Shown one piece after another: positions 1-57,608 of a DNA stretch of 64,000 nt. The DNA lies in assembly GCA_050084985.1 (NCBI GenBank), contig JBITNC010000001.1, forward strand, positions 140,368,001 to 140,432,000. Direction: 5' to 3'. Origin of the DNA: Nageia nagi. Taxonomy: Eukaryota; Plantae; Pinophyta. Position numbers and translations under genes: made by a program. Position 1 is the first letter of the stretch, and each line of letters opens with the position of its first letter. The notes beneath the pieces are model-generated. The model was not told where the DNA came from and ran no database searches. It saw nothing but the letters and a program-made list of their open reading frames with translations.

Positions 1-499
1 AAGCTCCTGTGCATTGTTTTACATTATTTATCGTACCAAAAATTCAATGGACAACAACCATGGGAGAAAACTCATTTTGAGTGGCAAGCATCATTACAGT
101 TACTAAAAGATAAGTTCATTGACATACTTTGAAGAAGCAAAAATTGTTGCCCGTCACAGAAGATAGGTTAGAAGACCAAATATTATTTAAGGGTTATGTT
201 GTGACTAAAACACATGTCCCAAAATCCTGCAATTTTGAGGACCATCAATGCATCATGTATATACTTCGTTTTGTCGTCGTCTTGTCCACCCAAACTGTGT
301 CACAAAGACCCGGATTCGTGGATAACTCTTCTTAGTTCAAGCCTTATTCTTCGTCTAGGATTAGTCATGTCAAGTTAGAAATTTCAAAATCCTCAAAAAT
401 GGCTAAGTCTGGGAAGGATAAAAGTCGATCTTAGGTGAACTAGGGAGTCTAAGAAGAGTCGAGGCCAGATCAAAGCAAACTGGGCATCTCTAAGGGCTG

Positions 500-1456
500 G
501 CGCATGATTTAAAAAGACAATTTTGTCTTTTCAAACCATGCGACCAAGCTTGGAGACCATCCAGATAGGAAGAGAGGCTCAAAGACGGAATCTAGGTACT
601 TGCCCGTCCAGCGCATGCCTCCAGGAAACAAAATTTTGTCTTTTCCGAGCATGCGCCAAACACAAGAAGCAGATTGGAGCAAAGTGAAGCATGGAAAATC
701 TAAGGCAAAGGCACAAGGCTAGCGCATGCTTCAAAAAGACAATCTTATCTTTTTGAACCATGCGACTTGGCCAGGAGGATGAGTTGAACAAGTTGGAAGG
801 TCGGAGAGTGAACCATAGGCTCCCAGGAGGCTAGCGCATTCCTCAAAAAGACAAAATCTTGTCTTTTTGAACTATGTGCCAATCCTAGAAGGGCTTCTAG
901 TTCGAGCGAAGGTGAAAATTTTGACAAGTCATGCACCCAAAAAACTCAAGACCAGCTCAAGCATACCCAGAGGAGCTAGCACATGATCTCAAAAGACAAG
1001 TTCTTGAATTTTTGAGGCATGCGCCAAGCCCAGAAAGTCTCCAAAATCCGAGAAAGACAAAAATTTGGCTAAGTCATGAGCACTTAAGAATCAAATTCCG
1101 GAAATTAAGCCATCTGGAGGCTAGTGCATGCTTCAAAAAGACAAAATCTTGTCTTTTTGAACCATGCGACCAGGCTGGATGGATAGGCAAGGCTAGCACA
1201 TGCCTCAAAAAGTCACAAACTTGACTTTTGGAAGCATGCACCAAGCTCACAGATTTCCCAGGTTGAGATGAAGGATCAAAATTGATAAGTCCAGCCGACA
1301 GAGAGACTAAAAATCAGGAGAAATCAAGTTACTGGGTGAGTTTCATGATCAAGGCAAGCAAGCATATAGGCAAGAGACCCAACGTTGGAGGCATATTCAT
1401 CCCTAGGGTTGGTGCATGGTTCAAAAAGTCATAATTTTGTCTTTTTTTTCATGCGC
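500..1456. repeat. Array of 8 interspaced 46-bp palindromes (copy A)
   Basis: Consensus GCGCATGC(C/T)TCAAAAAGACAA-AATC-TTGTCTTTTTGAAGCATGCGC. Units start at 500, 611, 722, 834, 979, 1124, 1196, 1412 and are separated by non-repetitive spacers. Confidence 0.92.
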
Positions 1457-1611
1457 CAAGCCAAATTGACCTTCAAAACCCAAACGTTTGGGCACGGGCG
1501 GCTTTGCATGAGTTTTTGGGCTAGCACACATCTTGAGGTCAGCCAGATGGATGATTAACATTGTGTCTATCTGTAATCCTAGCTAACTAGGGCAAGCTAG
1601 AAGCCAAATGG

Positions 1612-1655
1612 GCTATAAATACAAGCCTAGGGACCTCATTTTCTCAAATTCAAAA
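1612..1655 (+). promoter_or_regulatory. TATA-box promoter of the element ORF (copy A)
   Basis: GCTATAAATACAAGC...CTCATTTTCTCAAATTCAAA, conserved in copy B (30356-30398). 229 bp upstream of the ORF ATG. Confidence 0.7.
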
Positions 1656-1842
1656 CTTTCTCCTCTTCTACTTTTGCACCAAGATAGCTGCAAATTGCAG
1701 ATTTTTGTGCTTGAACATCATCATTCGTGCATCCTAGGGCTTGCGCTAGCACTTGGGAGGCTAGCTATCACCACATGGGCATCTTCTCCACCTGGAAACC
1801 CACGCACAACCCTTGAGGAGCAACACTGCAAGCAAGAATACC

Positions 1843-4800
1843 ATGACCTCCTCCAAGGGTAATTCAACCCCTAACTTCACTAGGGATCTCGAACGTTTGA
1901 AACAAGATTGCGTCATCTCCATTTGTGAGAGACAACGAGCCCTTCCCCAAGGGGTCAAATTCTCAAGGAACGGTTTTGCAAACCATCAGAGACACAAATT
2001 GGCAAAACGTTGACCCTATGCAGATGAGGGAGAGCATTCGAGGCCTTCCTACCATTGACCTGAAGCAGGATATCATCTTCTTCTTCAGACTCTCCACTTG
2101 CACATTCGTCCCATTCACAGCCCCATTCCCTGAATTGTGCATGGAAGTTGGTCACTACTGGCAGAAGAGAGAGTCCTTTGAGATATTAGAAGAAACATCA
2201 TTATGGACTTCCGCCCCGAAGCTATCAACGCAGCCTCTCAATGGACTTCCGAGGGTGATTATGAGTATAGCGAGGCTAGGTCACTAGCATGTTACCAGGA
2301 GAGTCCCAGGGCAACCGTCGCTATCAAGAGCTAGATGCTGGAAGAGCATCACGAATTAAAAGGAAACGTGCTCATCAATGCTCCTCGTTCCAACTTTTAC
2401 CTTGTAGTCAAGTTGGTGATCCTCATACTATCCAAAGTTCTCGGGAAAGAAGATGCTTCAAAGTTCAAGAAGGAGCTCTTCACGTTTAGTCTTAAGATTG
2501 CTAAAGGAAGAAAGATCCAATGGAGCAAGCTCTTGAGCAACGCCATAGCTAATCAGTTGTCGTCCATTGGCACCACTCACAAATTCTACCTTAATTCATA
2601 TCTGGTGTACATGTTGCTTCACGGCAAGTATAGAGCTACGACACAGGGTGAGACAGCTTGGATAGAAAGAGGGACCTATTCCATCTGGAAGTGTTACCCC
2701 AAATGGAAATTAGAGAGGAGATGGGATAGTTTCATGATGAAAAACGATGGATGGGAGTACGAAATATACAAGGAGCTTAAGGGAGAGATCACGATTGCCC
2801 AGATCTCCAATTCAACCCAAGACGCTTTGAAGAAGCACGAGGACTTCTTCCTCCATCACCAACACTTCTCTTACATTCGTATACATGGATCAACCATACA
2901 GCCCTATCAGTTGCCAAGGTTCGTGAGTTACAGGATATTGTTAATGGAGATGATGAGGTAATTGGCCTTTCTACATGAACAGGTATGGCAGAAGAAATCA
3001 GCCACATCCAATTTGTCGATTGCCATGGGAGAATATCAATGTAAGTTCTAGACAGATGTGGATACTATGAAAGAAGAGTTGGCCAGATACACCTTTAGGA
3101 AGATGCCGACAACTGACCATTATGACCCGGATCACAGGATGCACTCATTCTTCATGAAAGAAAGAAAAAAACCTTATGAGTATAAATCACTTGTAGACGA
3201 GGAGCCTTTCCGGAATATCAATAATGAGGTAGAAATGAAGAAGTTAAGGGAAAGGGTACAAAAGGATGCCAACAATCAGCAATATCAAGTGGAAGCTACA
3301 ATCAACAAGAGACTCTCGCAGCACAAGAGAAGAAGACCTCAAGAGTCTACTTCCAAGATCACTCAGTTCCCTCCAATAGATGAGATACTAGTTGGACAGT
3401 ATGCGTCCATGCATGGCAAGAATGCAGTCGAGCAAGTTGTACGACAGGTACAAGCCACCATGAATGAGCATGACGTAAGGGAGTTGGAGCGTGTGGCTAT
3501 GGACAAGGTAGTGAGGTGTGTGAGAAATAGACATCAAGATCCCTCTTTGCCACCTAGACCACCTAGAGCCAAAAGAGCAACGCCATCACTCATTGTTCCA
3601 CCATCCACGTCATCAGCTTCCAATTCCTCGTACCAACCTAATGAAAATCAAGAAGAAGGGGAGGTTGAAGAATTAGAAGATAAACACGAAGTGAATGCAG
3701 CCCAAGATGAGTAGATCCCAGATGCACAACAGCATGATGAATCCGTGGAGATATTGGAAGAAATCCGTAAGCCAACAACACCAGAGCCATCCCTAGATAA
3801 AGGTAAGGAGCCAGTGTCGGAGACAGTACAGAAGAGAGCTTGATTGAAGAGAACTCCGCAGTCATGGGCCACTGAAGCTTCAGGTGAACACGATGGGCAA
3901 GGAGAGAGATCCTCCAAGAGACCAAAGAGAAGTACTGTTACAATTCAGGAGGCCGTTGTGGACACTTATCAGCCATCACCCACGAATGAGTGGGGTGTGA
4001 ACATGGAGGAATGTCTTGATGTATTTAACATGAATGTCAGAGAAGAGTTTGAGACGAAAGAGAAGAGTGATCATCATGGAGAAAGCTCCACTCACCCAAG
4101 AAAGACTCAGACATATGTGCACTTAGCTGATAATGCCATACACATCAAGACCATAATAGTTGATAAGGAGAATCCACAACATCCTGAAGACCTCAAGCAA
4201 ATCAACCAAATCATCAACACAGATTTGATTGGTTTGGATGGTCGGAAACATGCAATTATCTCCAACACTGAGGCCATCACCAAGGATGGTATGATGAAAG
4301 ATAAAGAGATGAAAAGCCTCAAGGAGTTAGCTGCACAGAAGAACTTGACTAAAGAGTTAGAATCGGCTAATGCACCCATAAAGGAGCTTCGAAATATTAA
4401 ACCACTCAAGGAGGGTATGATTGCAGTTAAACAAAAGCATATAGATGAGGTCTTGTTAGCAGTACAACAATTTACCATGGCATTAGAGAGGGTGGCATTA
4501 GAAGAGCAAAAACTCAAGGACATCATCGTGGAAAGAATCAATCTTCTCAAGATTTTGGATTCTAGACGGCCTATGATCATGCAGTTTAAGATGACATGGA
4601 ATTAAAGGCCAAAAGATGTGAATTTTTGTGAAGAATTTTGGTTCTATTTGGGTGTGGTTAACCAAATAGCCACCCGATTCCAAGAGGTGCAAAAGGATGT
4701 TCAGAAGCTCAACGACAAGGCAAACACTTGTCTTGAACCAATGGAGTTCCAGGTGAAGTTTCTTGATAATGATTCGTCCATCCGAGACAAAGACCTTGTA

Positions 4801-5064
4801 GTGGCAAAAGTGAGACACTTCCTTCCCAATCTGATCATGACTAAGGATATCAACACCTTCCAAACTGGCAGTCACTTGGAGCATTTGCTCAAAGCTCATG
4901 CATGGGAAAAGGATATGCTCACGATCGTGGAGAAGGTAGAGCTTAGCATAATGAAAAATGGGCCAAAGCTCTCCGAGATGCTGCATGGACTGAAGCTTAA
5001 CGCCAAATTCTTCGATGACGACTTTGAGGGACATGTTGAGGTGTTGGGCCAACCAACCGCCTAG
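1843..5064 (+). pseudogene. Disrupted ~1,070-codon accessory ORF of element A: N-terminal globular domain, acidic/low-complexity linker, coiled-coil-like C-terminus
   Basis: ORF-track pieces 1813-2013, 1925-2287, 2335-2961, 3058-3714, 3844-4605 and 4618-5064 join across stops/frameshifts and align along their length with copy B (e.g. KFYLNSYLVYxLLHGKYR, WKCYPKWKxERRWDSFxMKNDGWEYEIYKELKGEI, FCExxWFYLGVxNQIATRFQEV). Confidence 0.85.
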
Positions 5065-5269
5065 TCATATTATTTGTTTTTATTTTATTTCATAATTATT
5101 GTGGAGACTTTAATTTATTTGTTAATAAATTCTCAAGTTTGTGATGGATGAGGATTTGCTCCCACAAACTTGGATGATATCTTGTAATGCCATGTGGCAC
5201 ATTTTTATTGGACCATGCTTTATTTCTTGGAAATTGCAATTAGGGTTAGGGCAACACTTAGGGTTGCTT

Positions 5270-5310
5270 CAAAAACTATATATAGCCCATTTGGGCTCAT
5301 TTGTAATCAT
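5270..5310 (+). promoter_or_regulatory. Second, LTR-type TATA region of element A
   Basis: AACTATATATAGCCCATTTGGGCTCATTTGTA; copy B has AACTATTTATAGCCCATTCGGGCTCATTTGTA at ~34060. This context is typical of the U3/R junction of plant LTRs. Confidence 0.6.
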
Positions 5311-5487
5311 CAGACATTTTTTGCAAATTGGACTACTTACATAATACTTTCAATCTTGCAAGTTTTCCCTTTTCGCAATTATGATATAATTCCAAGAAAT
5401 TGAAGTGAGCTTGTTTTCATTTGGGACTATGAAAGTGAATGAGTGTTACATTTTTATGCTATCTTGAGTATTTGGGACATTTTATAA

Positions 5488-5827
5488 ACCTTGTTGGTGG
5501 ATAAAAGAATACTTGTGTATCTTTTGAAATATTTCAAGAAGTGTATGACTGTAAAGTTTCATAGTTTGCACATGGGATTAGTGTGTTCTAAGATGACTTG
5601 TGTATGCCGTTTAATATAGGAACTTCACTCCACAATTAAGTTCTACCCACGTGATACCTTGTTGGTGGATAAAAGAATACTGTATATCTTTTGAAATATT
5701 TCAAGAAGTGTCTGACTGTAAAGTTTCATAGTTTGCACATGGGATTAGTGTGTTTTAAGATGACTTGTGTATGTCGTTTAATATAGGAACTTCCCTCCAC
5801 AATTAAGTTCTACCCACGTGATACCTT
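5488..5827 (+). repeat. 168-bp tandem duplication within element A
   Basis: Units start at 5488 and 5656, bounded by ACCTT microhomology (5488, 5656, 5823). Single copy in element B. Confidence 0.9.
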
Positions 5828-7540
5828 TCTTATCCATCACCTTAGCGCCAAGCTCCTCTTGTTGGGACGTTCATGTTGTTGCCTTTCGAGTTGGATTTGG
5901 GATGTGTGGAACCTATGCCAAACCCACACAAGCTCGGTCTTAGAAGGTCATACTAATCGGTGAGAACATTGCCTTAGAGCTTAATTCATATATCACTTTC
6001 TTTTCACAACTCTTTTTCTTTATTTTCTATGTGCGGCTTTCGCAACAAACCTTTTTGTTCCCTTTTTTTGAGAAACAACTATTCCTGGATTGCAGACCCT
6101 TCGAGTCCTTGATTAACAAATTTCATTTGAGTTGGTAACAGCTTCCAACATCTCCACCTTATCACTTGAGTGAACCCTTGCACCCTTTACTTTCAAACCT
6201 TTGAGGTAAAAGTCCTCATAGCAGGTAGGGGTCACGCCCTACCACTCAGGTGTGGGAGTCTTTCTACAAACCTTGTGATCCTATTTACCAATCAGCAAGG
6301 GTAAAAAAGAAAAAGCTCCAAACAGGTTATAGCAAGGTCCACCATAGATTTATAAAAATATTATATAAAATACACATAAAACAACAAACATAGTCAACAT
6401 ACGAAAGAACATAGAAATCATTAAAATGAATAGTTGTGTGAAGAATGTTAGAGGATCCCAAGGGAAATGATTAGAGTATGAGTCATAAAAACATGACAAA
6501 GGGGAATTGGTGAGAGATAAGAAAGTCTTGGATGTGGCGGATCACAAACCCATTTTAGAAGACATAAACAATCACACTTGTGCCCCATTATGATGGAATC
6601 AGACAAATGTAGAGCTAAAAATACAAGGGACTCAATTGACAAACAACTCCCCACGACATCATTATAACATAAAGACTGCATTTTTTGAGTTTTAACATTT
6701 TATAAATATGATTATTAAGTGAACAGTGGGAAACAAGACACAGTTTTGAAGCATTGCAAAGAAGGAACATCAGATCAGAGTTAAATGGATAGACACAAAA
6801 TAGTTTCACTATTCAGATTCTCAACATGCATCCAAAATAGTTTCTGGTCCATTACAAAGAGAATGGGCAGTCAACATTTTTGACTTTTCTCCTAAGCAAT
6901 TCTAAAGTTGCATGGATGTGCCTGAACCAAACTGTTCCTATTCCAACCCACTCTGCACATTGAGACAAAACTGGAACCTTTTGATCATCATGAAACAGTC
7001 AAATTCTAGCAAGTCCATCAAACTGTATAGCACAAACAGAAACAACCATGAAATTATTCAGCGCCATCTTTTACAACAGTATACTGATGTGATCGAGTTG
7101 AGGAAGAGGTGCAGCCCAGCTAGGAGGTTAGAAAGTGCACACATGAGGCAATGTCTAAGGCCACCTCAACATCCTTCCTATGCATTTCCGAAACAAGGTA
7201 ATAGCACAAGCGCAACAACAAGCATCATTGACCTTAGAATCAGACATGAATCACATTCCAATGTTGATTTATGCAGCTTTTTTCATTCCCTATAATACTT
7301 CTAGTTTCCTAAAATTGCAACCATTTGTTGCGATAACAAGACAGAATAGAGAATAATATCATGAAATAGAGAGAGCTTGTGCAATTGTTCGATGCTTCTC
7401 AAATATTTGGTACCAATTAATGTTTCAAAGTGAAAAACATTGTTGTTTGCAAACCGAGGTCCAAGAAATCCAATTATCATTAACGAGGTGCAATATTCGA
7501 TGAAGCTATAACATAAAGCCTATTAATAATGAATAGAAAG

Positions 7541-8475
7541 TGTTAAATATTTTAGCACTAAACAATTATAATCCCAGGTCTTCCTCTTCTGCTTTTATAG
7601 TAGTTATAAAAGGTATACAAGTATACAACAGAATCAACACTTTACTTCCATTGAAGAACAAGAATTACAAAAGTATACTCTCAAAAATACAAATCGAGAT
7701 CTTTCAGCATTGCAATGTAAATGAGAATATAACATTGCACAAAACTCCCACGAATCTACAATAGCAATGGACTTGATTTTACTCTCCAGAGCATCAACAC
7801 ACTTGGTCTCAACTCAACAACCACATCCAACACACCCACTATCACTTAGCCACACCAATAAACAGTTTCCTTACAAGACTCTAAACTTACACTAGCAGTC
7901 AAGAGGCTACTTGCTTACCTAAGTAGGCATTTAATTCTTGTTTGCTTGCCCTCCATGCCCATAGAGCAACTCTATTTAGAAGCTCAATTAGGTATCTAAA
8001 GATTTTCTAATAATGTGGATATCTTCTAAAAAATCTTCACTTATATAAAAATTTATTTCCTCACCTTTTAAAATATCCATAATATTTGACTTTCCTTTCA
8101 CCATCTTTTACCACATCACCACCATATCTTGTCTTTTATTACAAGACACCTTTTTATAAAAATTTAACCATATCTTGTCTTTTTTCAAGACAACATTTTC
8201 TAAAGTAATTTTAAAAATATCTCTAGCTTTTATCATAACATGGCTTTTACTTTTACTATTCACCATCTACTATTCAGCAGCGATTATTCAAGAGTTACTA
8301 TTCATTTTTTACTATTTACCATCTCATTTTTACCTTTACTTTTACTGTCATTTAGATAGCACCAACCTATAGTCCCTATATTACATTTGTAATGTACAAT
8401 GCGCATCAATGATTATTCTATCATTATCGTAACATTCTACCTATGCCATTATGCCTTTGCAAATTAACCCCTACA
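7541..8475 (-). mobile_element. Degenerate solo-LTR-like remnant related to 43544-44685
   Basis: Reverse-complement similarity to the 43.5-44.7 kb LTR (TATA block CTCTATTTAG...GGTATCTA..GATTTTCTA; terminal TGTTAAATATTTTAGCAC). No convincing TSD, right boundary uncertain. Confidence 0.5.
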
Positions 8476-9382
8476 CCATTACTATAGCTCCTTTGTGAGC
8501 ATCATAACTTGTGCAACTCATTATAATCTTCGTACTATCATTGTATATCGTCCATACTAGATATCCAAATATAATGCAAAGTTGCAGGATAATTTTAGTG
8601 AATTTAGATACTGAAGAATGATTTTCTCTTTGTTGATTAGAGTGATTAATTGATGAAGGTATCCAAAAATGTATTAATGTCATTTTAAAAATAAAACTTG
8701 GAGTTATTTTATAAAAGCATCTTTTTAATATTTCTATTTCAAGATGTATATATCTACTAACTTTTATATTAAGATTATGCTTAACTATAAATCTTTGATC
8801 ATTTCAGATTTGGATATTGAATTGGGATAAGCCAGTCATACCGAATAACCTCTCAATGAGACAATTTTTGTTCCAATGTCAAATTTGGTGCAAGGCTGTT
8901 GCAGATCATCAAAAAAGATCAAGATCGTCATAAAGGAAGTCACTGTCAAAAGTGATTAAAGTCATTTCTATAATCAGCAGAATGTAGGCAATCAATATCT
9001 TCATTAGTTGTACACACATGGTCAAAAGATCTTCACACAAGACGCAAAAGGCCAATCTCAGGATACTCTTAACATCCGAATTTATTGCCTTCAGCTTGCA
9101 AACCTAGGGTGCTCTCCAAGGCACAAGCTATCTATCGATAGGCTTCCCAAACCATATCAGTCCAACTAAGTTCTTCATCCCAATTTTGTATATTTCAGAA
9201 AATGCCTAATTTGTCTTCTTGCTTATCATTATAGCTATTTGTTTGCCATCTGTCCATTATATTTGTTGTCTATTTTTCATTCATGTAGCAACATTGTTTT
9301 TAAATTTCATGTTACAATGACAATAGGCAAAAGCAATGGGATGTCATGATAGATGAGAGGAACAAAATTCTCATCAATATTT

Positions 9383-11400
9383 TGTAATATCCCTAAAATT
9401 ATCCAGCTTTGTAGATAATTGAATTTGTATGTAAGTGTGGCAAATAGGAGTCTAAGAGGGATGTCCAACCCTTGGGCATCATTTGATGTGTTTTGTCATA
9501 AATATGGGAGTTATATGGGTTAATTAGTGTTTTTTGACAAGTTTATATGTTGGTATATGGGTTAGTAGAGTTAGTTATGGTGTTAGAAGGGTTTTTGTGG
9601 CAAAAACAAAACCATATAATTATTTTTGGCTAATTTTTGCTAAATAGGTATTAATAAGGGTCTTAGTGATGTCTTCATAGGTATTCTAAAATAAAGTTAA
9701 TTTTATTTGTGGGTCCCAGCATCACTTAAGTTATCTCACGAGATTATATCACAGCCCTTAGATCTCAAGTGAGTGAGATCTAATATCTCAACAAAAGATT
9801 ATATCACAACCCTTAAATCTTTAGTGAGAGATATAATCTCAACCATCCATGCTAAAATCAAGGATTGAGATCTATTCTCTTATTAGGTTGTGATTATAAA
9901 GGAAGAATAGGGTTTCATTTGAGCTAGCTTGGAATTGTGATTGAGGAATTGAGGAATATTGTTGTATTCTTGGCTCTTAGAGATTGTTGGTGATTTTTCT
10001 AGGAAATTTGGGGTTCCCTTTGGATTTATCCATTGGAGGCTAGACCAGTTAGTTATCTACCCAGTTTTACTGACAAAACCATTCAGGGTTTGTGTTTGGG
10101 CTGATTTGTTAAAGAAGCGAACCACATTTATCAGATCTACCACTGGTAGCAAAGTTTGCAATGTACCTTTCTAGGGTTTATCCAAATTAGCATTCAATCC
10201 GACTTATCCATGAATTAGGGCATCAATGAACATGCTCAATAACCATCCAAAACATGCGCTCAAATTGGAATGTAACAGCAATAGCTAAAGCTCATAGAAT
10301 ATGCAATCATGACCAAAACTAGGGCACAAATCAGATCTATAATATTATAGAAATATAGCTCCAAAACTACTCAATTCGCATACATTCTCATGTATAAAGA
10401 AGATAGATGTATAGCAGATATATATAGAAACATTCATTCACATTCGAGATGCAATATGAGCACCAATATTATCAATAATGAACCAAGAATAAGTATAGAG
10501 CTGGAAAAAGCCTGTAAGAAGTTCTAGGGCAAAGCCCAAGACTCTGAAATGCTCAAACTAGACTTCTCAAGGTTGGCGCATGTCCCAAGGAGGTTCCCAA
10601 GCTAGGTGCAAGCTGTCCAAGAGATGTAGAAGTGTAGATGAGCCACTTCTAGGCTAGGGAGCCGCCCTAAGCCCTAGAAGGTAGAGAAGGGAAGCATCCC
10701 TAAGCTCTGAATGATTGCACAAGATGATGTCTTCAAATGACCTAATGCCTTATAGCATTCCAAACTTGTCAATATGTCTTCCCAGGATGGCCAACCAAGG
10801 AGGGAGTAATAATAAAATATTAAATGTCTTAAAACCCTCTTCATCATGGCCGACTTGGACATGGGGCACTATAACATTAAATAGCCCTCTTTATTGTCTT
10901 TAGATAAATATATAATTCGCCCTTTTTGAGCATGGCCCTTAAGGCATAAATATGGACATGATAAATACACACTTTATCAAATAAATCATTCTAATCTAAG
11001 TGTTAAGAGTCACAATGAATATGCATGAGGGGAGATCTCTAGATGTCTCAAATTGGGGACATTACAAAGTCGGAGCAGCATTGTGAAGGGTTTTTGCCCT
11101 AGTTTCTATTCCAAAGTGTGACGTCTAGCCCTAGAAGGGTTCATATGCTGATCTAAAGAGTTTACGCTCACTTGGAAGTCTAGCGTTCCTCTTTTGGGTG
11201 ATTGGAGGATATTCTGTAGCATCATAGACTGAGATCTGATCCTCATTATCAGACATCCAGCCTAGGAGAGGCTAGTTTTGTGGTTTTGAGGGGACTTTGT
11301 GGCATACACTTATTGGTATTTCTCTTGTCTACAGTTATTAATTTGTTGTACCTGAAATAAGGGTTTCTGAGTTGGAAAACAAATAGAAAATCAGAGTACT
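9383..11400 (+). mobile_element. Truncated gypsy-type LTR remnant, interrupted by the solo LTR at 10157
   Basis: Begins TGTAATATCCC (a typical gypsy LTR start), TATA-like ATTATAAA at ~9893, internal ~60-bp repeats 9740-9850. 3' end not identified. Confidence 0.5.
10157..11066 (-). mobile_element. Solo LTR, same family as 36129-37188
   Basis: TG...CA ends, TSD AAGTT/AAGTC, reverse-complement match to 36129-37188 along its length. Confidence 0.88.
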
Positions 11401-15853: not shown

Positions 15854-18800
15854 TGTGAGAGTTGAACTATAAACTAAGCAACTCTAAACTCCCAAGATCA
15901 CATGAAAGCTCACAAATAACATCTAAATAACTCACAAAGCAATCTTACAAAGATAACTCAAGATATGAAGTGGTTCCTCCAACTAGGAGTACATCCGCTA
16001 ACTAGATCTTACTTCTTAATAAATACGAACTTTTACAATCCTCTTAAACTTTTCTCCTAAACACTATCCTATAGCATAACTTTACTCCACAAATTGGCGT
16101 TTGATCCAAAAAGGGAGTCTTCTATTTATAGGCCAAAAATCCCTCTTTGGATCACCCTTTTACTCATTGTACAAAAGCATAACATGTACATCCTTTTACC
16201 CAAGGGGCATGCTCATGACATGGAGTGTAGGGCAAGTTACATTACATATTTACTTAAATACTTAAAGTATCAAATGATACCCTTAAGTATTAGTGAACTC
16301 ACATAGAAGATTATTACAAAACCATTACAATAATGCATTATACATTCCAACACTCCCCCTTAATGCAATATTTGGATAGAGCGAATAAGAGAAGGAAAAG
16401 AAAAAGTATGAGAGTTCTCCTCCAAACAAATACAACGAATTTCCTTAACAACAAGTTTTTGCCACCAATCAACCAGAGAGAACAAATGAGGGCAACTTAG
16501 AATACTTAATAGCAAGATCCTTAGTCCCTGCAACATAACTCAAGACTTGCTTAACAGCATTGAGGTGCTCAACATATGGTTTCTGTATGAATCGTGTCAT
16601 TAGATTCACTGCAAAGGCAATATCTGGCCTAGAAATAGTCAAACACAAAGACTACCAATTAATTGCCTGTAAGCTATAGCATCAACCAACTGAGAATTGG
16701 AGCTCAAAGAAACAGTGATTCCAGGAGAGACTGGGATCGCAGCATATCTACACTCTTCCATTCCAAACGTCTGCAAGATGTCTGATGGGGGAGATTAAAA
16801 GTTTTTGTTCTCTCTCTAGTTTGAGACTCACTACTTTGCCAAATAGAATCATTAACCACAACCAGTTTCAATGTACATGAAATAGTCATCCAACTAGAAG
16901 TCATGAAGAGTCTCCACAAGCCTACATACTCGAAGTAAGTAACCTACAATCTTAAGAGAACCTACAAGTCAAAAAAGCTCAGACAACAAAATCAGTTAGA
17001 TGCAACACAATCATATCAACAAAGATAGATGCCATCATAAACTGATCAATCGTGAACTATAAGTCATTACAAAGATGTCAGGCCAAAAAACTCATAGTCA
17101 CCTATTGTATACAAAACATGTGTTGATTATCATAACAAGTAAAGCGAAAAAAAAAAATTGCACATACGAGTTTCTCACGTATGGATAACTGAACAGTGCC
17201 AAAAAATACATAAGAGTTCCTCACACATGGATAACTAAACAGTGCTAGATTAGCCAATCTTTTTGCTTTAAAAATTTGTACAACAAGTTCCTCACATAGA
17301 GCAAGCTTATCACGAAGTTGTACAACAAAATCAACACTATACAAAACAAAATCCTCCTAGGGGTGAAGTTTTCATCACAAACATGAATTCAACACAAGAA
17401 TTCAAATTTCAATTCCCCTTGAGAGCAACTTCACCAACCCAATAGCATCCCTAAGCTTACAGAACTAAGCTTCCGGGAGGGGCTTGGTAAACAAATCAGT
17501 GGAATTTAAGGTGGATGGACAATACTCTAGGCTGATGCCATCAAGAACCTTCTCCCTAATAAAATGTGTCTGGATTTCCACATGTTTTGTTCTCTAATGG
17601 AACACAGGACTCTTAACCAAAGAAATCGTCAACTGATTATCTGAAGAAATCAAAGATGAGCCACCTTGCTCATACCTAATTTCTTTCAGAAGATGCCTTA
17701 GCCAAATGGCTTTCTGGGCTGCAACAAACATGGCACGGTATTCAGCTTCTATGGTGGAAAGAAAAACAGTAGACTGCTTCTTGGAAACCCAAGAGATAAC
17801 ACGTAAACCAATGTTAAACACATACGTAAGGGTTGATTTCTTATCATCTCTATCTTCCCCATAGTTAGAATCTGAGAATCCAAAAAGAACAAACGAGGGC
17901 AACTTAGAATACTTGAGAGCAAGATCCTTAGTCCTTGCAACATACCTCAAGATTTGTTTAACAACATTGAGGTGCTCAACATATGGTTTATGTATGAATC
18001 GTGTTATCAGATTCACTGCAAAGGCAATATATGGCCTGGAAATAGTCAAACACAAAAGACTACCAATTAATTGCTTGTAAGCGGTAGCATCAACCAACTG
18101 AGAGTTGGAGCTCAAAAAAATAGTGATTCCATGAGAGAATGGGATCGCAGCATATCTACACTTCCATTCCAAATTTCTGCAAGATGTCTGATATATACTT
18201 AAATTGACTGAGATAAGTACAATCCTTATATTGGTATACTTGCATTCCAAGGTAGTAGTGTAAGAGACCAAGATCAGTCATTCCAAACGTTACCTTAAGT
18301 TTGTATATGCACTCTTGAATGATTTCATCATTGTTCCCAGTAATCAAAAGATCATCCAAATAAAGGAGAATCAAGACCACATCTTTTCCTTGATTGAGCA
18401 CATATAGATCAGAGTCTAAAAAGCACTTGGAGAAATCAATATCTACAAAATACTCTAAAATCTTCCTGTACCAGGCTCAAGGTGCTTGCTTAAGTCCATA
18501 TAATGACTTCTTTAACTTGCACACAAAGGATTCTTTGCCTTCCACAATGAACCCTTCTGGTTGATTCATGAAGATTTCCACATCTAAATCACCATTGAGA
18601 AATGCACTCGTGATGTCAAGTTGAAAAACATTCCATCCTTGAGCTGCAGAAAAAACAAGGATAATTCTCACAGTAGGCATCTTTACCACGGGAGCAAAGG
18701 TTTCCTCATAATCTACACCGTATTTCTGAGCAAAACCTTTGGCTACTAACATTGCCTTGTATTTCTCAATATACCCAACAGAATTGTACTTGACCTTGTA

Positions 18801-21800
18801 AATCCACTTATTACCAATTACATTTTTCTCATAGGGATAAGGAACCAAATCCTAAGTTTCATTTTTCATAAACGCTTCATACTCCATTTTATTGGCTTCC
18901 ATCCAGCACTCGTGTTTTGAAGCTTCTTTGAAGGATGAGGGTTCATGCTTGTTGTCAAGTTTAACAAATAAGGATTTGTTCAAGGTCATACTCCTTGTTA
19001 CCCTTTGAGTTGAAGAGTTTTGTTTCTGAGGTGATTTGACTATATCAATATCCAACCAGCTAGGAGCAACTAACAAGTCATCTAGATCATCAACATCTTC
19101 ATTAGAAGCAGATTTTTCAGAAAGTTCATTGAACTTTACATCCCTTGAAACCAACACTACTTTATAGGATGGAGAGTAGAGCCTGTAGCCTCTATGTTGA
19201 CTATCATAACCCACAAAGATGCATTTTTTAGCTCTTTTGTCCAACTTTTTCCTTTTCTCAAAAGCAATGTAGGAGAACGCTTCACAACCAAACACCCTAA
19301 GGTGAGAAATGTTAGATTTTCTTCCTAACTATGCTTCAAAAGGTGTTTTACCCTGAACGGCCTTTGTAGGACACCTATTCATGGTGTAAATAGCTGTGCT
19401 CACAGTTTCATCCCATAAGAAACTAGGAAGATTACCCAGCATGCATCTAGCCATCTCCATAATTGTCCTGTTTTTCCTTTCGGCAACACCATTCTGCTGA
19501 GGAGTATAAGGAATCGTAAATTGCCTCTTGATTCCATACTTAACACAATAGTCATTGAACTTATTGTTATTATATTCTCCCCCATTATCTGATCTCAACA
19601 TCTTGATTTTAAAGTTATTTTGATTTTCAACAAAGGCCTTAAAAACCTTAAAACTCCCAAAGGTTTGATCCTTGTGCTCAAATAGATATCCAAAGGTCAT
19701 CCTACTAAAGTCATCAATAAAGGTCAAGACGTTAAGATGCTTCTCCAAGCAACTTAGTCTGAAATAGTCCCATCAAATCTGAATGCACAAGTTGAAGAGA
19801 TTGAGATGCTCTTGTTGCCTTATCTTTTTCAAACTTTTGCCTATGCATCTTGTCGATGATGCACTTCTCACATAGACCAATTGAAGTTGAAATAGAAAGC
19901 AAATCTTCCACAAGTTCTTGGTCTTTCATGACTTGAATACTCTTGTGGTTAAAGTGTCCTAGATGTTGGTGCCAAAGATTGCCTGTAGAACACACACTTG
20001 TAGCAAGACACATCTTTGATGGAACTTGATCTACAATATAGAGATCATCTTTCATTGATCCCTTAACCAAAGTGGCAAGTTCTTTCTTCATGCACCAAAA
20101 TTGAGAGTTGAACTCAAACGAGTACTTTTTTCTACCAACTTGAATCACATAGAGAAAATTCATCCTAAGCTTGGAAACATAAAGCACATTATCAAGAACC
20201 TTTCCATGAATCAACACTCTCAATTCCTTGGAATTCAAGGATAGAGTTATCACCTATCACAACCGCATCTTTTCTATACTTGTGAAAGTTCTCAAACTCT
20301 TCCCTTTCAAAACATAGATGATTAGTGCAACCAGAGTCAACAATCCAATCAGACGAAAAAATGTGAAACATAGAGTACAGCATCGCAGTAAAACCAGCAA
20401 GAATATTCTTCTTTCTTTTGAAATTCTTTACAATTCCATTTCCTTTGTTCCTTTTCTCTCTTTTCTTTTTGAAGCAATCAACTTCTTTGTGACCTTGGAT
20501 GCCACAATAGTTACAATTTCCATCAAACTTTGCCTTAAGATTTGGATTGTTTGCCTTGCCTTTTCCATCTCTTTGCTTGAAGTGGTTGTTGTTGCCATTG
20601 TTCCTACTGTTGTTGATGTTGTTTCTGTTGTTGTCGTTGCCTCTTTTCTCAAATCTTTTGGAGGAAGAAGGATAAGATTTCTTTTGATGGTAACTGCTTC
20701 TTAAAAGGAGTTTTGGTTGCTCCAAAACCAACGTTATTATCCTTAGGAGAAGAAATCAACACCTTTTTGTTGAGAGTTTTCTCGTGCTTCAAAAGAAGCC
20801 TAGAAAGACTCTCAAGGGAGAAGACTTCTTCATCATCAAGCCTTGTTTCCATAACCGTCACAAAGTTTCCAAACTTTGAAGAATGGCTTTGAAGAATGAT
20901 GAAGACCATGAACTCATCATTGATCCAATTGCACCCACAAGCAACAAGTTGGATCCTTAGGTCAATGATTTTGTTCAAGTAGATAGCCACATTTTCATCT
21001 TCCCCTTGATAAAATTGAAACAACTTTTGGGAATAGTAAACCTTCTTGAAAACTTTGAACCAAGGTAGATTTGCTTAAGTTTATCCCAAGCTTCCTTTGT
21101 CAAAGTTGAAGAGGAAATCATTAGGAGCACATCATCTGAAACTACATGGAAGATCATGGAGGTTGCCAACTCATTCTTTGTGTTGTAAGCCTTTAGTACT
21201 TTCACATCTGTAAAAGGTACAAAATTCTCATTCACTGTTTACCAAAGCTTCCTTGCCTACAATTCAACTCTCATCCGTAGTTCCTAAATCCCAAAGTTGG
21301 AACCATCAAGAATGTGTTTGGATAAAAAGGAGTCTACCATTTACTACACAAGAATGTGAAAATTAATAAGCATGTGGTTCAATAAACAACATTATACGTT
21401 AAATTTTAACCAAGTAATACATGTTACATTTAATTAACTAAGAAATGCTTGATTTGATTCACAAATGCAAATGTTTTACAATTCAAATAATAACGCATGT
21501 ACCCAAATACATTTCTCATCTCAAGAATCGTAGATATAAAATGACATTGTTGAAGCTTGTTTTCTTGTCTAAAATTAAGCCTTCACCTAGATGCTAGCAC
21601 AAGAGGAGCCCAAGTACTACCAATCCTCAACTAATTCACCTTAGTCAATTTTATACTTTCTCACAAGAAGTACCTACTATGTTTGAAGGTTATGACATTT
21701 AGTGGATCGGCCAAATTATTAATCTTGATTAAGTCTCAAGTTGTCCTCCTAAGTTATCAGAATAATCCTTGAATGGACGTGCGGATATGCGGTATCACTA

Positions 21801-24643: not shown

Positions 24644-25500
24644 TATTGTGCCTGCACAACACACCCCAAAATACAAGATTTTGGGGACCCTATTTTTACT
24701 TAAGCATAGTAGTATATTGCCTGAGGGATGACTAGATTGAGATGGTTTTGAAGATTCAAATTGGTTGAACAAAAAAGTGATACAAGGAGACCATCCACAA
24801 TAGGGAATGAGACAATTTTGGGTGCTAAGCCATCAATTTTGGACTTTCAGGATCCCCAACTCTGAAGAGTGGCATTCTCAAGCAATGGGCACAATTTTTG
24901 AAGATTTGGCAAGTGTAAACATGAGAGTGTGTACATGGAAAATGAGCTCAGTTTTGAGCTTCAACAAATGCAAGATGTGATCCTATGGGTGTATGGAGGA
25001 GCTCATGGCAAGTATTTTTAAAGTTGAAATTTCTAGCAACCAACCAACAATGCAAAATTTGTATCAAAGAGGCATTTTTTGAGGTTTGATGTCATCAAAG
25101 CTTGGGAAATTATGCCTAAAGAAGAGAGATCATTTTGAGCTTTGGCAAATGCGAAAATTGAAGATGATAGGTTGTGAAGCACGAGAAATCAATCATATTT
25201 AAACTTGGAACTTCTTGAAAAAGATCAAAATTGCACAATCTATGAAGAGGCATTTTTGGAGCTCTGATGTCATCAAAGCTTGGAAACATGTGCTTAAGGG
25301 AAAATTGACCAAGTTTGAACTTTGGCAAAATGGAATTTTGAAGATATGACCCAATGAAGGACCTAATTTTGAGCACCTTTAACCTTGCAACTTTCAAAAA
25401 AAGAGCCAAAATTGCACTCCATAAACCTAGGCGGCATTTTTTAAGGTTTGATGTCATCAAAGGAAAAAAAATGCGCCTAGTAAGGAATGCAAAATATCAA
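24644..25500 (+). mobile_element. Truncated 5' end of an LTR related to elements A/B, with ~180-bp repeats
   Basis: Starts TATTGTGCCTGCACAACACACCCCAAAATACAAGATTTTGGGGACC versus A TGTTGTGACTAAAACACATGTCCCAAAATCCTGCAATTTTGAGGACC. Near-palindrome TTTGATGTCATCAAA at 25085, 25263, 25447. Confidence 0.6.
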
Positions 25501-25509
25501 AGAATGATC

Positions 25510-25945
25510 TAACCATTGATCCATTGGTAAACTTGTTTCTGAATGAACTCACCTCGTATGCCATCATCCCCATTTTCTACTTCCCTTTAACTTTACTTTG
25601 TTATTTTTCCTTTTTGTCACCATCAAAAGTCTATCCTTTCAATCGATGTAAAACAACTCCGAGGCCTACATTAAACGTGGTTAACAATTGCTATCTCTAT
25701 CCTCCCGCTGAACATTCCAAGTCTAGCTACTATCACCATCACATATGACACTTTTAAGATACTGGAAACCTTGGGGTAAACAATCCTTGCAAGCAAGGGT
25801 TAGTAACGCAACCTCAACCACATGTTGGACACCCTTTCCTGTTATCATCTAGGTGGTCTTCATAAGTGGAAGGAAACACATCCCAACAAGTCCCATTGAT
25901 CGGTTTTGGTCACAAGTGGACATTAATATATTTTCTTTCTTTCTC
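25510..25945 (+). mobile_element. 5'-truncated LINE 3' end, same tail as the 43.2-45.8 kb LINE
   Basis: GTCCCATTGAxCGxTTTTGGTCACxAGTGGACATTAATATATTTTCTTTCTTTCT shared with 45767-45820. Confidence 0.6.
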
Positions 25946-26630: not shown

Positions 26631-28662
26631 AACCTTCAGAAGTAGGATAGGACGCCATAGAAACAAAGACTTGGTGGTCCTAGTTTTGGGCGTAATGGCA
26701 CATGATGCAAATGAGGACCCAAGCATAGGGAGGAGGATTAGTAGAAAGAGGTACTACTATCCGATGCTAACTAAGAAGGAATTCCATGGTTGCACAAGGA
26801 TGTTGTTGCAAAGCAAGATAATGATGTGGATGTAGACACGGATCAAGAAGAGAATCGCAAGAAGAATGGCAGTTGAGATGGTGACGACAACATCAGAGGG
26901 AAGGCAGGCCTATTTGAAATGAACGACGAGTGGAGAATAGGTTGGTTTGATGACCCTCTAAAGATGAAAGATGTGGCTCTAAATATGAAGAATTGGAATA
27001 ACCTTGCACACAAACTGCAAGATGTGGTTGGGACTACATGTGAGGGTGAACTCGTAAGTGTGGTAGAGGGCCAAGGCCAGGTTGAAAAAATTGGCCTAAC
27101 GGGCTTATTTACCTCTACCCGTGCAATCATTCTTGGGCATAGGTAGTGATTGGAGAAAAGGGGGATAAAACCCAAAGAACAAGCTTCGATGTACATATGA
27201 AGGATAACGAGATATTTGTCCCAAAGGACCTGGTCAGTTTGGCACTATCAAAAGGATCTCATCACTTAGTTGGATAATTCGTAGGGGCTCAACTAGATCT
27301 AAACTCTATCAGGAATGGGCCTCTGTGAAGTGGCAACCAAAACACAGCATGGAAATTGTGGTGTTGTCAAGGGTTTTTTTATGATCAAGTTGAACAAACA
27401 TGAGGATTCAAAGAAGATACTCCTAGAGGAATTGTGGTTCTTTGGTCGGCAATGTCTATTTGTGAGAAGATGGGGACCGAATTTCAACCAAGAAACCTAA
27501 ACCTTCGATCATAGCTTTAGAAGATGGGAATATTGAAATTCTGGCTGGGATAGCAAATGGCTTAAGACATTTTTTTAGCTTTAGATCCACCTACTAAAGC
27601 TAAGTTGCACCTCATTTATGCAAGGACGTGCATTAATATGGATCTAGAAAGAACCTTTCTTGATTCGATAAAAATAGTTGCACGAATGGGGGTATAGACC
27701 CAAGTAGTAGAATATGAAACGCCCCCAAGTATTTGCAAAAGTTGCAATATCTAGGGACACAAGGAAAGAGTTTGCCCTAAGCTATGACAAATTCCTCAAA
27801 AGCAAAAAGCTTGGACTTGAAAACACTCTATTGAGGGATTAGAGGAGCTAAGATCAGAAGATTCAAAACCGGAAGAGGTTCTAGAGGAAGGATCTACTTA
27901 GAAGGGAAATCTTTAGAGGGGCGATGGAGTGTCTCTGAAAGCCAGTGTCCTGTCTCAAATCAATTCGATTTCTTAGAACCGAGAGAACCAGAAGAGCCAT
28001 AGGAGGAGGGAGAGAAAAAGGATGACTCTCTAGAGGCAACAAAGAATTCCTCCACACCCTTGGAGAAAACAAAATCCATCTAAAAAGGAGGAAAGAGACA
28101 TAAAAGGAGGGAGGACTCCCCATACAAGATGTCAAACCAGAAAGGAAACTTCATGTGATGTTCAAAACAAGAAAATCAATCTCTAGAATGAGAAACTCTA
28201 AAAGCAGAGGTCATGCAATATTTGAATTCCGCAACCATCATAAATATAGACAATGTCGAGAGGATCCTCTTAAACAATATGAAAAAACTTTCAAAGAAGA
28301 CTAGAGGACAACTTTTCTCGGTAGACAACTCTCCATGCTTCCACCAGGCCAGATCCCAGACGAGATAGGGTTTTATCCCTAGGGATGACAATCCTCCAAG
28401 ATGATGCCTGGACCACTCAAAGGGTTTCCAACATGTCTCAAATTTAAGGGGATTCAAAACCCCTAGGAAATACAAGAGATGTAGCCTCTGTTAATCTCTA
28501 TTTTTGCTTTGTTTTGGATGTCACGATTTGATCTGGTTGTATTCCCTTTGTTGGTGATTTCTATGATGTTCTTTTTGGTTCTTCCTCTTTCTCTGGCATT
28601 GTAAAAAGGTTTTTGGGGAATCCTTTCAGGACCCACTCCTTTCACTAATAAAACAAAAACAA
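26300..28662 (+). mobile_element. L1-type LINE remnant: ORF1 (DUF4283-like domain + zinc knuckle) and A-rich 3' tail
   Basis: KGFFMIKL...ILLEELWFFGRQCLFVRRWGPNF at 27370-27490, CKSCNI*GHKERVCPK at ~27735-27780, tail AATAAAACAAAAACAA at ~28647. Boundaries approximate. Confidence 0.65.
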
Positions 28663-29252
28663 TTCAAAGAACATTGCAAGGATCAAATTGGAGTCACTGC
28701 ATCGATATTGGATAGGATATTAGAAAGAATTCAAGCATGTGTAGAGGTTCTCCCCACAATCTCTAAAAAAAGTTAATAATGCATTCCTTTAACCATTGAA
28801 TGATTAAAAAAAAAAGTCAAGTTCCACCTCTTTGTTATCTCATTATTACATAACATCTTCAATTTCCTTCTCTTTAAGAATCCAAAACCTTCTATTTAAT
28901 AATCCAAAACCTGCAAGTCCTATGCTCTCATAAAATAAGATGATCCATTTGTTGTAACTAACACAATACGCCTGAAAATCCTGTAATTTTGGCGACCCTC
29001 AGCAACTTGTGTTCATGTAGTGTCATATTTTTATCTCAACCAACTCAAGAGGTTTCGTAAGACCTGATTACCATGTCAAGTTGTCCCAATCTTGAGCCTT
29101 ATCATTCGCCTAGCCTTAGTCATGTTGAGCCAAAATCTGAAATTCTAAAAAATAGTTAAGTTTAGAAAACCAAAAGTCGGCCTTAGGCAAATTAGGGGAA
29201 TCCAAGTCGAGTCGAAGCCAAGTTAGTTCAAACTGAACCACTCCTAGACCCA

Positions 29253-30201
29253 GCGCATGCCTCCAAAAGACAAAATCTTGTCTTTCTAGGACATGCGCCC
29301 TTGTCAAAGAGTCGTCCAAACCAAAAACAAGTCCAAAAAAGGCAAATTGGGCCACTTTGAGGCCTAGCGCATGCCTCCAAAAGACAAAATATTTGTCTTT
29401 CTAGAGCATGCGCTAGGGTCAGGGAGCAACCTGGATCGACACGACGCAGGAAAAACGCAAGTAAAAGGCATTCCAAGGCTGGTGCATGCCTCAAAAAGAC
29501 AAAATCTTATCTTTTGGGAGCATGCGCTAAAGCTAGAAGGTCACACAGGTTGAGTTCAAGGATGAGAAAGTGAAGTTCAAGAATCGAGGAGGCAAGCACA
29601 TGCCTCAAAAAGACAAAATCTTGTCTTTTGGGGACATCCACTCAAGACAAAGAGGTATTCAATTTGTTCGAGCATGAAGCCTCTAAGCCTGAATCTAACT
29701 TTAACAGGACCAAAGGGGTTGGCACATGATTTTAGAAGACAAAATCTTGACTTCTTGAAGCATGCGCCAGACCTAGGGAGACTTCAAGATGGGAAAATCA
29801 CGAAAATTTGGCTATGTCCTGAGAGGAGAAACTCGAAACTCAGTCAATCTTGGCATCTGTAACCTAGCACATGCCTCAGAAAGACAAAATCTTGTCTTTT
29901 TGGAGCATGCACTCAAACTGTGAGAGCTGGAGAGTTTGGCGCACATTTCAAAAAGACAAAATCTTGTCTTTTTGAATCATGCACTTGACTTGGGAAGTGT
30001 CCAAGTTGAGCATAATGATCAAATTTGACAAGCTTGGGCACCAAAAAGAGCAAAAATCAAACAAATTCAGATCTCAACATGAGCTTCAACGTCAAGACAG
30101 ACGAAGAAGGGAGCAAGAAACACCAACAAACAGAGAGCATGCATCTCCAAGGTGAGCGCATGCTCCAAAAAAACAAAATCTTGTCTTTTTTGGGCATGCG
30201 C
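29253..30201. repeat. Array of 8 interspaced 46-bp palindromes (copy B)
   Basis: Units start at 29253, 29367, 29482, 29596, 29722, 29867, 29939, 30156. Same consensus as in copy A. Confidence 0.92.
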
Positions 30202-30585
30202 TTGGCCTAGAAGGACTCCAAAACCCCACATCCAGTTTCTGACAATCAGACATGAAATTCCAAGTAGGCACACATCTCAAGGTTGGCCATCTAGATGGTT
30301 GGAATGGATTTTTCCTCATACATGGCCGACTAGGGTTTCTTGGAGACCAAATTCAGCTATAAATACAAGCTTGAGGATCTCATTTTCTCAAATTCAAATC
30401 GCAATCCTCTTCTACTCTTACGCCAAAATTGCAAAAGAAGACCACTTTTTGAGTTTGGAATCCGTCCCATTGCTTCTTAGGGCTTGCATAAGGAGTTTAG
30501 AGACAAGACATGCAACGTTGGGCAGCCTCATCCCTAGAAGACCCATGCATCACTCCTAGAGAATCCCATCATGAAGTTGAGCATC

Positions 30586-33500
30586 ATGACCACTTCCAAA
30601 AGCAGTTCAGCCAAGGACTTTGCAAGAGATCTCGAAAGCTTGAGGTAGGATTGCATCATTACTATCTGTGAGAGACAAGAGACCCCTTCCTCAAGGGGCC
30701 AAATTCTCTAAGGCCAAATTCTCTAAGAATGGATTTGCTACAATTGGAGACACAAATTGGTAAAATGTAGACCCCATGCAAATGAGAGAGGATACGTGGA
30801 ATGCAAATCAATGAACTCAAGCAGGATATTGTATTCTCCTCTAAGCTCTCCAATTGCACCTTCGTCCCATTCACAACCCCTTTTCCATAATTATGCATAG
30901 AAGTCAACCAGCATTGGCAAAAAGGAAAGAGGGTGCTCTGAGATATCAAAGGCAACGTCATCATGGACTTCAGCCCCAAGGCTATCAAAACAGCATTCCA
31001 ATGGAATTTGGAGAGAAACTTTGCATATAGCAAAGCAAAGTCATTTGCATGCTATCAGGATACTAACAAAGCTATCGTTGCTATAAGGAATTGGATGCTA
31101 GATGAGCACCATGTCCTAAAGGGGAATGCTCTCATCAACACCCCTCACTCCAACTTCTACCCTTCTGTTGAGTTGATAATTTTGTTGTTGTCTAGAATCC
31201 TGGGAAAAGAAGATGCATACAAGTTCAGAAAGAAATTCTTTGGCTTCATCGTGGAGATAGCTAGAGGGAAGAAGATTAAGTAGAGCAAGATGTTGAGTGA
31301 CACTATTGCAGACCAGTTGTCATCTATGGGTACCACACGTAAATTCTATCTCAACTCCTACCTAGTGTACTTGTTGCTTCATGGCAAGTATAGGTCCACA
31401 ACCAAAGGGGAAGTAGCATGGATTGACAAGGGAACATATGTTGTTTGGAAATGCTACCCCAAATGGAAAGTTGAAAGAAGATGGGATAGTTTCATTATGA
31501 AGAATGATGGATGGGAGTATGAGATCTATAAGGAGCTTAAGGGAGAAATCATAGTGACTATGATCTCAAATTCAGCCCAAGACACATTGAGGAAGCATGG
31601 GGACTTCTTCATAAGTTCATCCATCATCAACACTATTCCTACATCTGAATCTATGGATCAATCGTAGAGCCATATCAACTGCCTAGGTATGTGAGCAACA
31701 GATTGCTCCTAATGGAGATGATGAGGCAGTTGACCTACTTGCTTGAGCATGTATGGCATAAGAAATCAGCCACCTCAAACTTGTCGATCATAGTTGGAGA
31801 ATAACAATGCAGAACACGGGTGGATGTTGATTCCATGAGAGAGGAGTTGGAGAGATTCAACTTCAAAAAGATGTCCGTCACAAATAACTGTGATCCAGAG
31901 CACAAGATTCACGACTTCTACATGAAGGAGACGAAAAGAGCTTATGAACATAAGCCACTCAAAGAAGAGGAGCCTTTTAGAAATATAAACAATGAGGTGG
32001 AGATGAAGAAGATTCATCCTACGATGCACGAGAATGCTCAGAAGCAATAGCAAAATGTTGAGGCCACTATTGGCAAAAGGTTATCAAAGTCGAGAGGAAG
32101 GGGACCACAAGAATCCACATCCAAAGTCACCCAATTTCCCCCTACGATTGTGGAGCCTGTTGGCCAGTATGCCTCAATGCATGGTAAGAATCCAATGGAG
32201 CAGGTAGTACAAGAAGTTAAAAATACCATTGATGAGCATGACATGAGAGAGCTGGAATGTGTTGCCACAGATAAGATGGTGACGTATGTCACGAATTGAG
32301 ATAAGGATATGTCCCCACCACAAAGACCACCTAGAGGATCAACTTCATGTCCATCACCAATCATTCCACCATCTGGGTACTCATCCTCCGTCCCTTGTAT
32401 GAACCTGATGACAGTCAAGAAGAAGGACAAGAAGGTGAATCAAAAAATGAACAGGAAGTAAGTACAACTTAACACAATATATTCTGGATGCCCAACAGGA
32501 GGATAGGTCTTTAGAAATTTTGAAGGTAGTCCCAAAGCCTACTTCTTCAGAGCCTTCCACTTCTCAAGGGAAGGGTAAAGGTCCAGCTTCAAAATCAGTA
32601 CAAACGAGAGCATAGTTGAAAAGAACCTCTTAGTCTCGATCGTCGAAGTCATTTGAGGAGCACATAGAAGAAGAAGATAGAACTTTGAAAAGAAACAAGA
32701 GAAATGTCACCAACACTAAAGAGACAGTTGTTGAAACCCACCAGCCACCACCCACTGATGAGTAGGGCATTAAAATGGATGAATGCCTCGATGTTTTAAC
32801 ATGGACGTCAAGGAGGAGTTTGGAGTTGGAGAAGTTAATGACCAAGTTGGAGAGAGCTACACTCATTCCTGGTAAGAGTCAAACTTATGTGCATTTGGCC
32901 AACAATGCAGTTCACATTAAGACTATAATTGCTAACAAAGACAACCCACGACTTGGAGACCTCAGGCAGATAAACCAGATCATCAACACAGGTCCTATTG
33001 GTGTGGCTAGCAGAAAGCACATAATCATATCCAACACAGTGGCAATCATCAAAGATGGGATGCTAAAAGAAAAAGAGATAAAGATCCTCAAGAAGGAGTT
33101 AACTACTCAAAGGAGATTGACCAGAGAGATTATGTTTGCAAGGGTGCCCCCAGAGGAACTCTGAAAGATAAGGCCTCTCAAGGAGGGTATGATTACAGTA
33201 AAACATGAAGTGATCAACAAGGTCTTGACAATGGTGGAACAGTTCATTGGTGCTTTGCAAAGGGTTTCATTTGACGAGCAAAAATTAAAAGACATTGTGA
33301 CTGAAAGAGTTAGCATCCTCAAGATACTAGAATCACGAAAGCCAATGATAGTGAGATTTGAGATGATTCAAAACCAAAGGCCCAAAGATGTTAAATTTTG
33401 CGAAGATTATTGGTTCTACTTGGGTGTAATCAATCAGATAGCCACTCGCTTCCAAGAGGTGCCGAAGGAGGTTGAAATAATCAATGACAAGGCTAACACA

Positions 33501-33835
33501 AGCCTTGAACAGATGGATTTTCAAGTTAAGTTTATAGATGACAATACTACTATCAAAGAGACAGACTTGGTAGTGACAAAGGTTAGACATCTTCTTCAAA
33601 GCTTGCTCATGATGGAAGATGTCAACACCTATCAGACTGAAAGTCACCTCAGACACATGATGAGAGCTTATGCATGGAAGATATAGATGTAGAGACTAAT
33701 CGATGAAGTTGGACGCTATGTTGCTAAGAACAAGCCCAAGATTTCAAAAATGTTGCAGGGTTGGAGCTTGCTGCGAAATCTCTAGATGAGGATTTCGAGG
33801 AACGAGTTGCGGCCTTGGGCCCACCATCATCTTAG
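30586..33835 (+). pseudogene. Disrupted accessory ORF of element B, homolog of 1843-5064
   Basis: Starts MTTSKSSSAKDFARDLESLR*DCIITICERQ (A: MTSSKGNSTPNFTRDLERLKQDCVISICERQ), ends ...ALGPPSS* (A: ...VLGQPTA*). ATG lies 228 bp after TATAAAT at 30358. Confidence 0.85.
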
Positions 33836-57541: not shown

Positions 57542-57608
57542 ACTTTTGTTAGTGATGACAACTTCACCTCTAAGAGGCCCTTTTATTGTATATAGTGTTG
57601 ATTATGAT

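Follow-up and report, generated by a model that had tools for sequence, protein, structure and literature searches.

What kind of mobile element is a 6.1-kb unit of Nageia nagi DNA which has the ends of an LTR and encloses a palindrome array, a promoter and a long gene? The unit lies in a 64-kb stretch of genomic DNA, the whole of which is called the window here. It is probably an LTR-with-gene structure of a gypsy retrotransposon, most plausibly a solo LTR, and the parent element is likely a gymnosperm gypsy of the TatII/Athila type. This reading is preferred because integrase-type ends and target-site duplications (TSDs) were found on two independent copies, and because a PBS and a gag region lie behind the matching terminus of a distant relative, the metagenome locus L006.

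Organization of the unit

Copy 1 spans 6128 bp on the plus strand, with TG at 197 and CA at 6323-6324; its inverted ends are only 5 bp long. The flanking GGTTA repeats match at 5/5 letters, which is expected by chance at about 0.0014. The TG...CA ends with their perfect TSD, the palindrome array and the two TATA boxes reported by the first-pass annotation were all found, laid out as follows.

192..196, no strand: left TSD, GGTTA
197..6324, plus strand: copy 1, likely a solo LTR
497..1461, plus strand: array of eight palindromic units of ~45 bp (example unit, 1121-1172)
1613..1620, plus strand: TATA box upstream of the ORF, found in 5/5 close members covering the site (copies 1 and 2, L001-L003)
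1843..5064, plus strand: broken accessory gene of ~1070 codons
5137..5331, plus strand: conserved block resembling an LTR core promoter, second TATA at 5276; also in L001, L003, L004 and L006
5332..6324, plus strand: R/U5-like tail of ~1 kb, purine-rich terminus ending in CA
5488-5827, plus strand: 167-bp tandem duplication inside the tail
6224-6243, plus strand: short stem-loop in the tail
6325..6329, no strand: right TSD, GGTTA

Comparison of copy 1 with itself (blastn, word size 7) detected nothing beyond the palindromes of the array and the tandem duplication of 167 bp, and no terminal direct repeats within the unit, a feature named beforehand as a sign of an ordinary non-autonomous element. 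In LARD, TRIM and TR-GAG elements a pair of terminal direct repeats encloses PBS and PPT, an arrangement which copy 1 does not have.

The stem-loop lies where the tail is most conserved; copy 2 and L001 retain it, and L004 has it in altered form. It has no Rfam match; the Rfam search gave four weak matches, all far under the gathering scores, and no ribozyme. Over ~20 bp the two TATA regions of copy 1 (1601-1625 and 5273-5297) form a nearly perfect inverted pair, less clearly so in copy 2. The ORF promoter may have arisen from the LTR promoter, copied in inverted orientation, or the second TATA may be bidirectional.

Relatives and neighbors in the window

A second, colinear unit and a shorter relative reside in the window.

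24644..25888, plus strand: short relative of 1.25 kb, ORF-less
28950-34952, plus strand: copy 2, TG...CA unit of 6003 bp, 68% identical to copy 1 over 5.1 kb
29249-30205, plus strand: palindrome array of copy 2
30357 and 34062, plus strand: TATA boxes of copy 2
30586-33835, plus strand: broken ORF of copy 2

Copy 2 is flanked by CCATT and CCATC (4/5 letters equal). As each copy has its own target duplication, the two are separate insertions and not the two LTRs of one element. The short relative joins a 5' end of the family type (E 2e-5) to a tail which matches that of L006 up to the terminus (E 6e-43). It has its own array of three units ~180 bp apart (25067-25481), which differ from the main family in the palindrome core and resemble it in the outer arms. 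No TSD was found around it.

The surroundings of the two 6-kb copies are rich in copia sequences. Two copia elements, 78% identical and in opposite orientation, reside at 17277-21351 and 53627-57653, the latter with a 662-aa open stretch containing RVT_2, and an array of 49-bp tandem repeats lies beside it (57608-58016). A 56-bp sequence found at 25889-25944 and 45766-45821 (95% identical) is probably the end of another LTR family. The interval 6325-28949 was covered by a Pfam scan of some larger ORFs and by eye; a decayed reading frame at 27000-28400 resembles LINE ORF1 by eye.

Relatives elsewhere and the probable end of the LTR

In each of four public runs 2,700-9,700 contigs, mostly less than 95% alike, were found along the whole unit, which is therefore a member of a high-copy family. 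At the 3' end, the contigs with depths of 181 and 109 break off precisely at 6324, the pattern to be expected if many different flanks diverge from this point. Five loose ends continue beyond 6324; four differ, and one, reading TAAATTGGCAC, gives the spacer of L006 followed by 5/6 letters of the primer site, this close-family contig covering only the first 11 letters of spacer plus primer site.

The accessory gene is present in six metagenome loci, at most 15.6 kb long. L006 is distant (31-39% aa identity) and informative in its order: ORF, promoter block, TATA, tail, terminus, spacer, PBS, gag region. Its promoter block matches that of copy 1 (E 3e-30) and its terminus is homologous to the copy 1 terminus (E 0.003), the position of the L006 terminus being fixed independently, since the tail of the short relative at 24644-25888 matches it to the end. 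Behind the terminus come TAAAT and a site complementary in 16/18 letters to a CCA-ending small RNA, the sequence of which we take to be the 3' end of plant tRNA-Asn. The RNA is listed as pab-miR3711 (PMC8747174). A Retrotrans_gag region (PF03732, E 0.0012, below the curated cut-off) lies ~550 bp past the primer site. For the L006 LTR no 5' start was found; a 5' terminus upstream of array and ORF is common to four close members.

The TSD-bounded copies place the ORF between the termini, and the L006 terminus is an LTR end; by this alignment of ends the ORF is most likely inside the LTR. The proposal of the first-pass annotation, a gypsy solo LTR with gene and array in U3, thus gains support from the L006 order, its PBS and gag region, and the SRA contig.

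Searches with the 3'-end DNA pattern in metagenome and viral contigs found nothing. A PBS pattern match in another locus, L007, was discarded as a chance phage match with no tRNA. The 3' end of L001 was counted once, as the locus shows two 100% inverted duplications, likely assembly or amplification chimeras. L003 features at 1-2817 a very distant second element, 31 bp upstream of the family copy. The C-terminal part of its ORF is 23% identical (E 8e-15), and the order of gene, TATA (at 1880) and tail is that of the family, with a similar terminus and no PBS behind.

Alternative explanations

The 6-kb TG...CA segment could itself be the mobile unit. A helper integrase would then move or copy it in trans, one-LTR intermediates being one possible route, and most copies in the genome would never have flanked a full element. 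Six of seven 3' ends on long DNA lack a PBS, a PPT was found at none of five 5' ends on long contigs (a small sample biased to unique flanks), and two TSD-flanked single copies reside within 35 kb. Neither a pol gene nor a second LTR was found among the loci, the longest being 15.6 kb. Conifers, moreover, are reported to have low solo-LTR rates, forming few solo LTRs whatever the LTR length (PMC5751070). Against this, the homologous terminus of L006 is followed directly by PBS and gag, and a close-family contig repeats the L006 spacer and the start of the PBS. The unit also has no priming site of its own. The PBS pattern gave no match in the window. Short-read assemblies favor ends which run into unique DNA, and the absence of PBS and PPT may in part be explained by this bias. 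The stand-alone alternative of the first-pass annotation, weakened by L006 and the close-family contig, is thus kept as an unlikely one.

Less likely still, the gene might be an ordinary internal accessory gene on the 3' side, and the unit a derivative, rearranged or non-autonomous, in which the short LTRs decayed or recombined. According to PMC7264820 and PMC4408406, the usual place of plant accessory ORFs is between pol and the 3' LTR; the block 5137-5331 is found in other families too, and L006 alone could be a tandem junction. Copy 1 however has no internal terminal direct repeats, and no PPT precedes the promoter block. The TSDs enclose the whole unit in both window copies, and the four close members share a 5' terminus located upstream of array and ORF.

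A Mutator- or Ginger-like DNA transposon which lost its transposase and kept a VANC-like accessory gene would account for the best fold match, a Mutator-encoded protein, and for motif arrays, a VANDAL feature, but is very improbable given the 5-bp TSD with TG...CA, inverted ends of only 5 bp, the absence of any match to a transposase family or fold, and the PBS-gag region behind the homologous end, L006 by itself largely refuting it.

The accessory gene and its product

The ORF of ~3.2 kb described earlier at 1843-5064 is not an open frame. Two frameshifts, one close to 1980 and one close to 2175, interrupt it, as do in-frame stops at six positions (2332, 2959, 3049, 3712, 3841 and 4603), and the longest open stretch is 253 aa. 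The only stop common to both copies, 3841, was considered as a gene boundary and rejected, since the homologs P0007 and P0020 read through it. Over 857 aligned codons, copies 1 and 2 differ with pS 0.73, near saturation, and pN 0.20, giving dN/dS ~0.09 (bootstrap 0.05-0.14, from the 397/500 resamples with a defined dS). To judge from these codons, the accessory gene was functional while the lineages diverged and decayed after insertion. As both window copies are pseudogenes, they lend no support to the expectation that solo LTRs stay coding.

The product features a folded N-terminal domain, an acidic Pro/Ser-rich linker and a C-terminal part with hydrophobic periodicity. No Pfam family reached its curated cut-off in the six ORF pieces scanned, in agreement with the reported absence of gag, RT, integrase and DDE transposase, and neither a transposase family nor a transposase fold was matched. 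Relatives of the protein are fragments, 34 in one search and 177 in another (150 of these listed), and no homolog of 528-1680 aa was found. One of the ten relatives looked up is annotated as a hypothetical protein of Taxus chinensis (E 3e-11); with the copia-rich surroundings of the unit, this suggests a conifer host. Viral and prokaryote contigs gave no match to the protein query.

The PMD profile (PF10536) matched one of 22 members (E 0.023, not significant by sequence), and neither 30 further homologs nor the ORF pieces from the window. A VANC21-like fold was matched weakly. The structure model of the family's own protein has a pLDDT of 76.9; Foldseek searches with two models and PDB sequence searches gave no match, and the ESM Atlas no usable match for P0086.

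The palindrome array

In the eight units of copy 1 the arms pair at 11-18/20 positions, whereas 300 random sites average 10 and reach 14 at most. A pattern allowing 8 substitutions finds eight palindromes each in copies 1 and 2, L002 and L003, two in the truncated L001 and none in L006. Over the remaining 51.7 kb of the window, both strands taken together, it counts 12; 100 shuffles give a mean of 0.11. In 6/6 pairs the units are more alike than the spacers (for the window copies, 78% vs. 55%); array and gene alike bear the marks of past purifying selection. Covariation among 32 aligned units does not exceed that of shuffles, and selection for a hairpin was ruled out on this ground. Unit conservation in the absence of covariation is easier to reconcile with a dyad bound by a protein than with a hairpin under selection, making the palindromes candidate binding sites.

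A possible mechanism

In the LTR-with-gene reading, U3 would hold the palindrome array, a TATA box and the accessory gene, now broken, and full elements would carry this cassette in both LTRs. Unequal recombination would have left the two window copies as solo LTRs. The first TATA would drive the accessory mRNA, the second the genomic RNA. The accessory protein is a predicted DNA-binding regulator that would act on the array; we tentatively suggest, by analogy with VANC21 and VANDAL21, that a protein of the MAIN/PMD/VANC fold binds the dyads as a dimer and keeps the LTR unsilenced or active. That a gymnosperm lineage built an anti-silencing module into its LTR, made up by a MAIN/VANC-fold protein and the family-specific array it binds, is a more doubtful extension of this analogy.

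Comparison with known systems

Coding sequence inside an LTR is known from retroviruses, where MMTV sag and HIV nef reside in or overlap U3, and Sirevirus U3 regions carry palindrome arrays upstream of the LTR TATA box. The unit resembles both in these respects, and differs from them in its gene of ~1070 codons, its own array and TATA, and its 6-kb LTR.

TatII elements, gymnosperm Ty3/gypsy of the OTA clade, are 8-18 kb long; according to Neumann et al. 2019 (PMC6317226), 15% prime with tRNA-Asn, as do 12% of Athila elements, and forward extra ORFs occur on the 5' side in 23% and on the 3' side in 26% of 27 elements. TatII is recognized by its RT phylogeny, an aRH between PROT and RT, and primers of tRNA-Asp or tRNA-Asn. 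The TSD class of 5 bp recalls the present family, as may the tRNA-Asn priming and the forward extra ORFs, a comparison which rests on features other than RT/aRH and on a primer common to Athila. Judging by the TatII figures, databases may already contain elements of this kind that have passed without comment, although the parts of PMC6317226 dealing with extra ORFs do not place them in the LTR. PMD-coiled-coil extra ORFs of TatIII/Ogre (Ustyantsev et al. 2015, PMC4408406) similarly combine, in Tat elements of gymnosperms and angiosperms, a globular N-terminal domain with a C-terminal part resembling a coiled coil, but are 3' antisense or 5' sense, whereas the present gene is sense, has a TATA of its own and lies within the TG...CA unit.

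VANC21 of VANDAL21 (Hosaka et al. 2017, PMC5735166; 9LNK) is likewise a TE accessory protein encoded beside repeated non-coding motifs, the weak fold match and a sister element with a different motif adding to the likeness; VANC is reported to be related to MAIN in structure (PMC13547354). VANC belongs to dicot Mutator-like DNA transposons with 9-bp motifs in tandem repeats, in contrast to the retrotransposon LTR and ~45-bp dyads found here; for the present family, binding and demethylation would be predictions. Searches of the open-access literature found no account of a promoter-array-gene cassette in a plant LTR, nor of a described family with this architecture.

The feature is real, and is a variant of the LTR element with an accessory gene, the gene being placed inside the LTR. 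PMC7264820 and PMC4408406 describe the role of accessory ORFs in plant retrotransposons as an open question; with gene and candidate target array in one LTR, binding and demethylation become directly testable. If the anti-silencing reading is true, each LTR, whether solo or not, would serve as a source of the factor and as its target, different motifs would co-evolve in sister families, and the system would be an independent retrotransposon parallel to VANC. LTR finders usually apply a 6-kb limit (as in PMC6317226); a 6-kb coding LTR is at or above it, and such families may therefore be missed or annotated as host genes. Solo-LTR counts in giant conifer genomes may be too low, and an LTR anti-silencing module, if it exists, may help explain how such elements fill these genomes.
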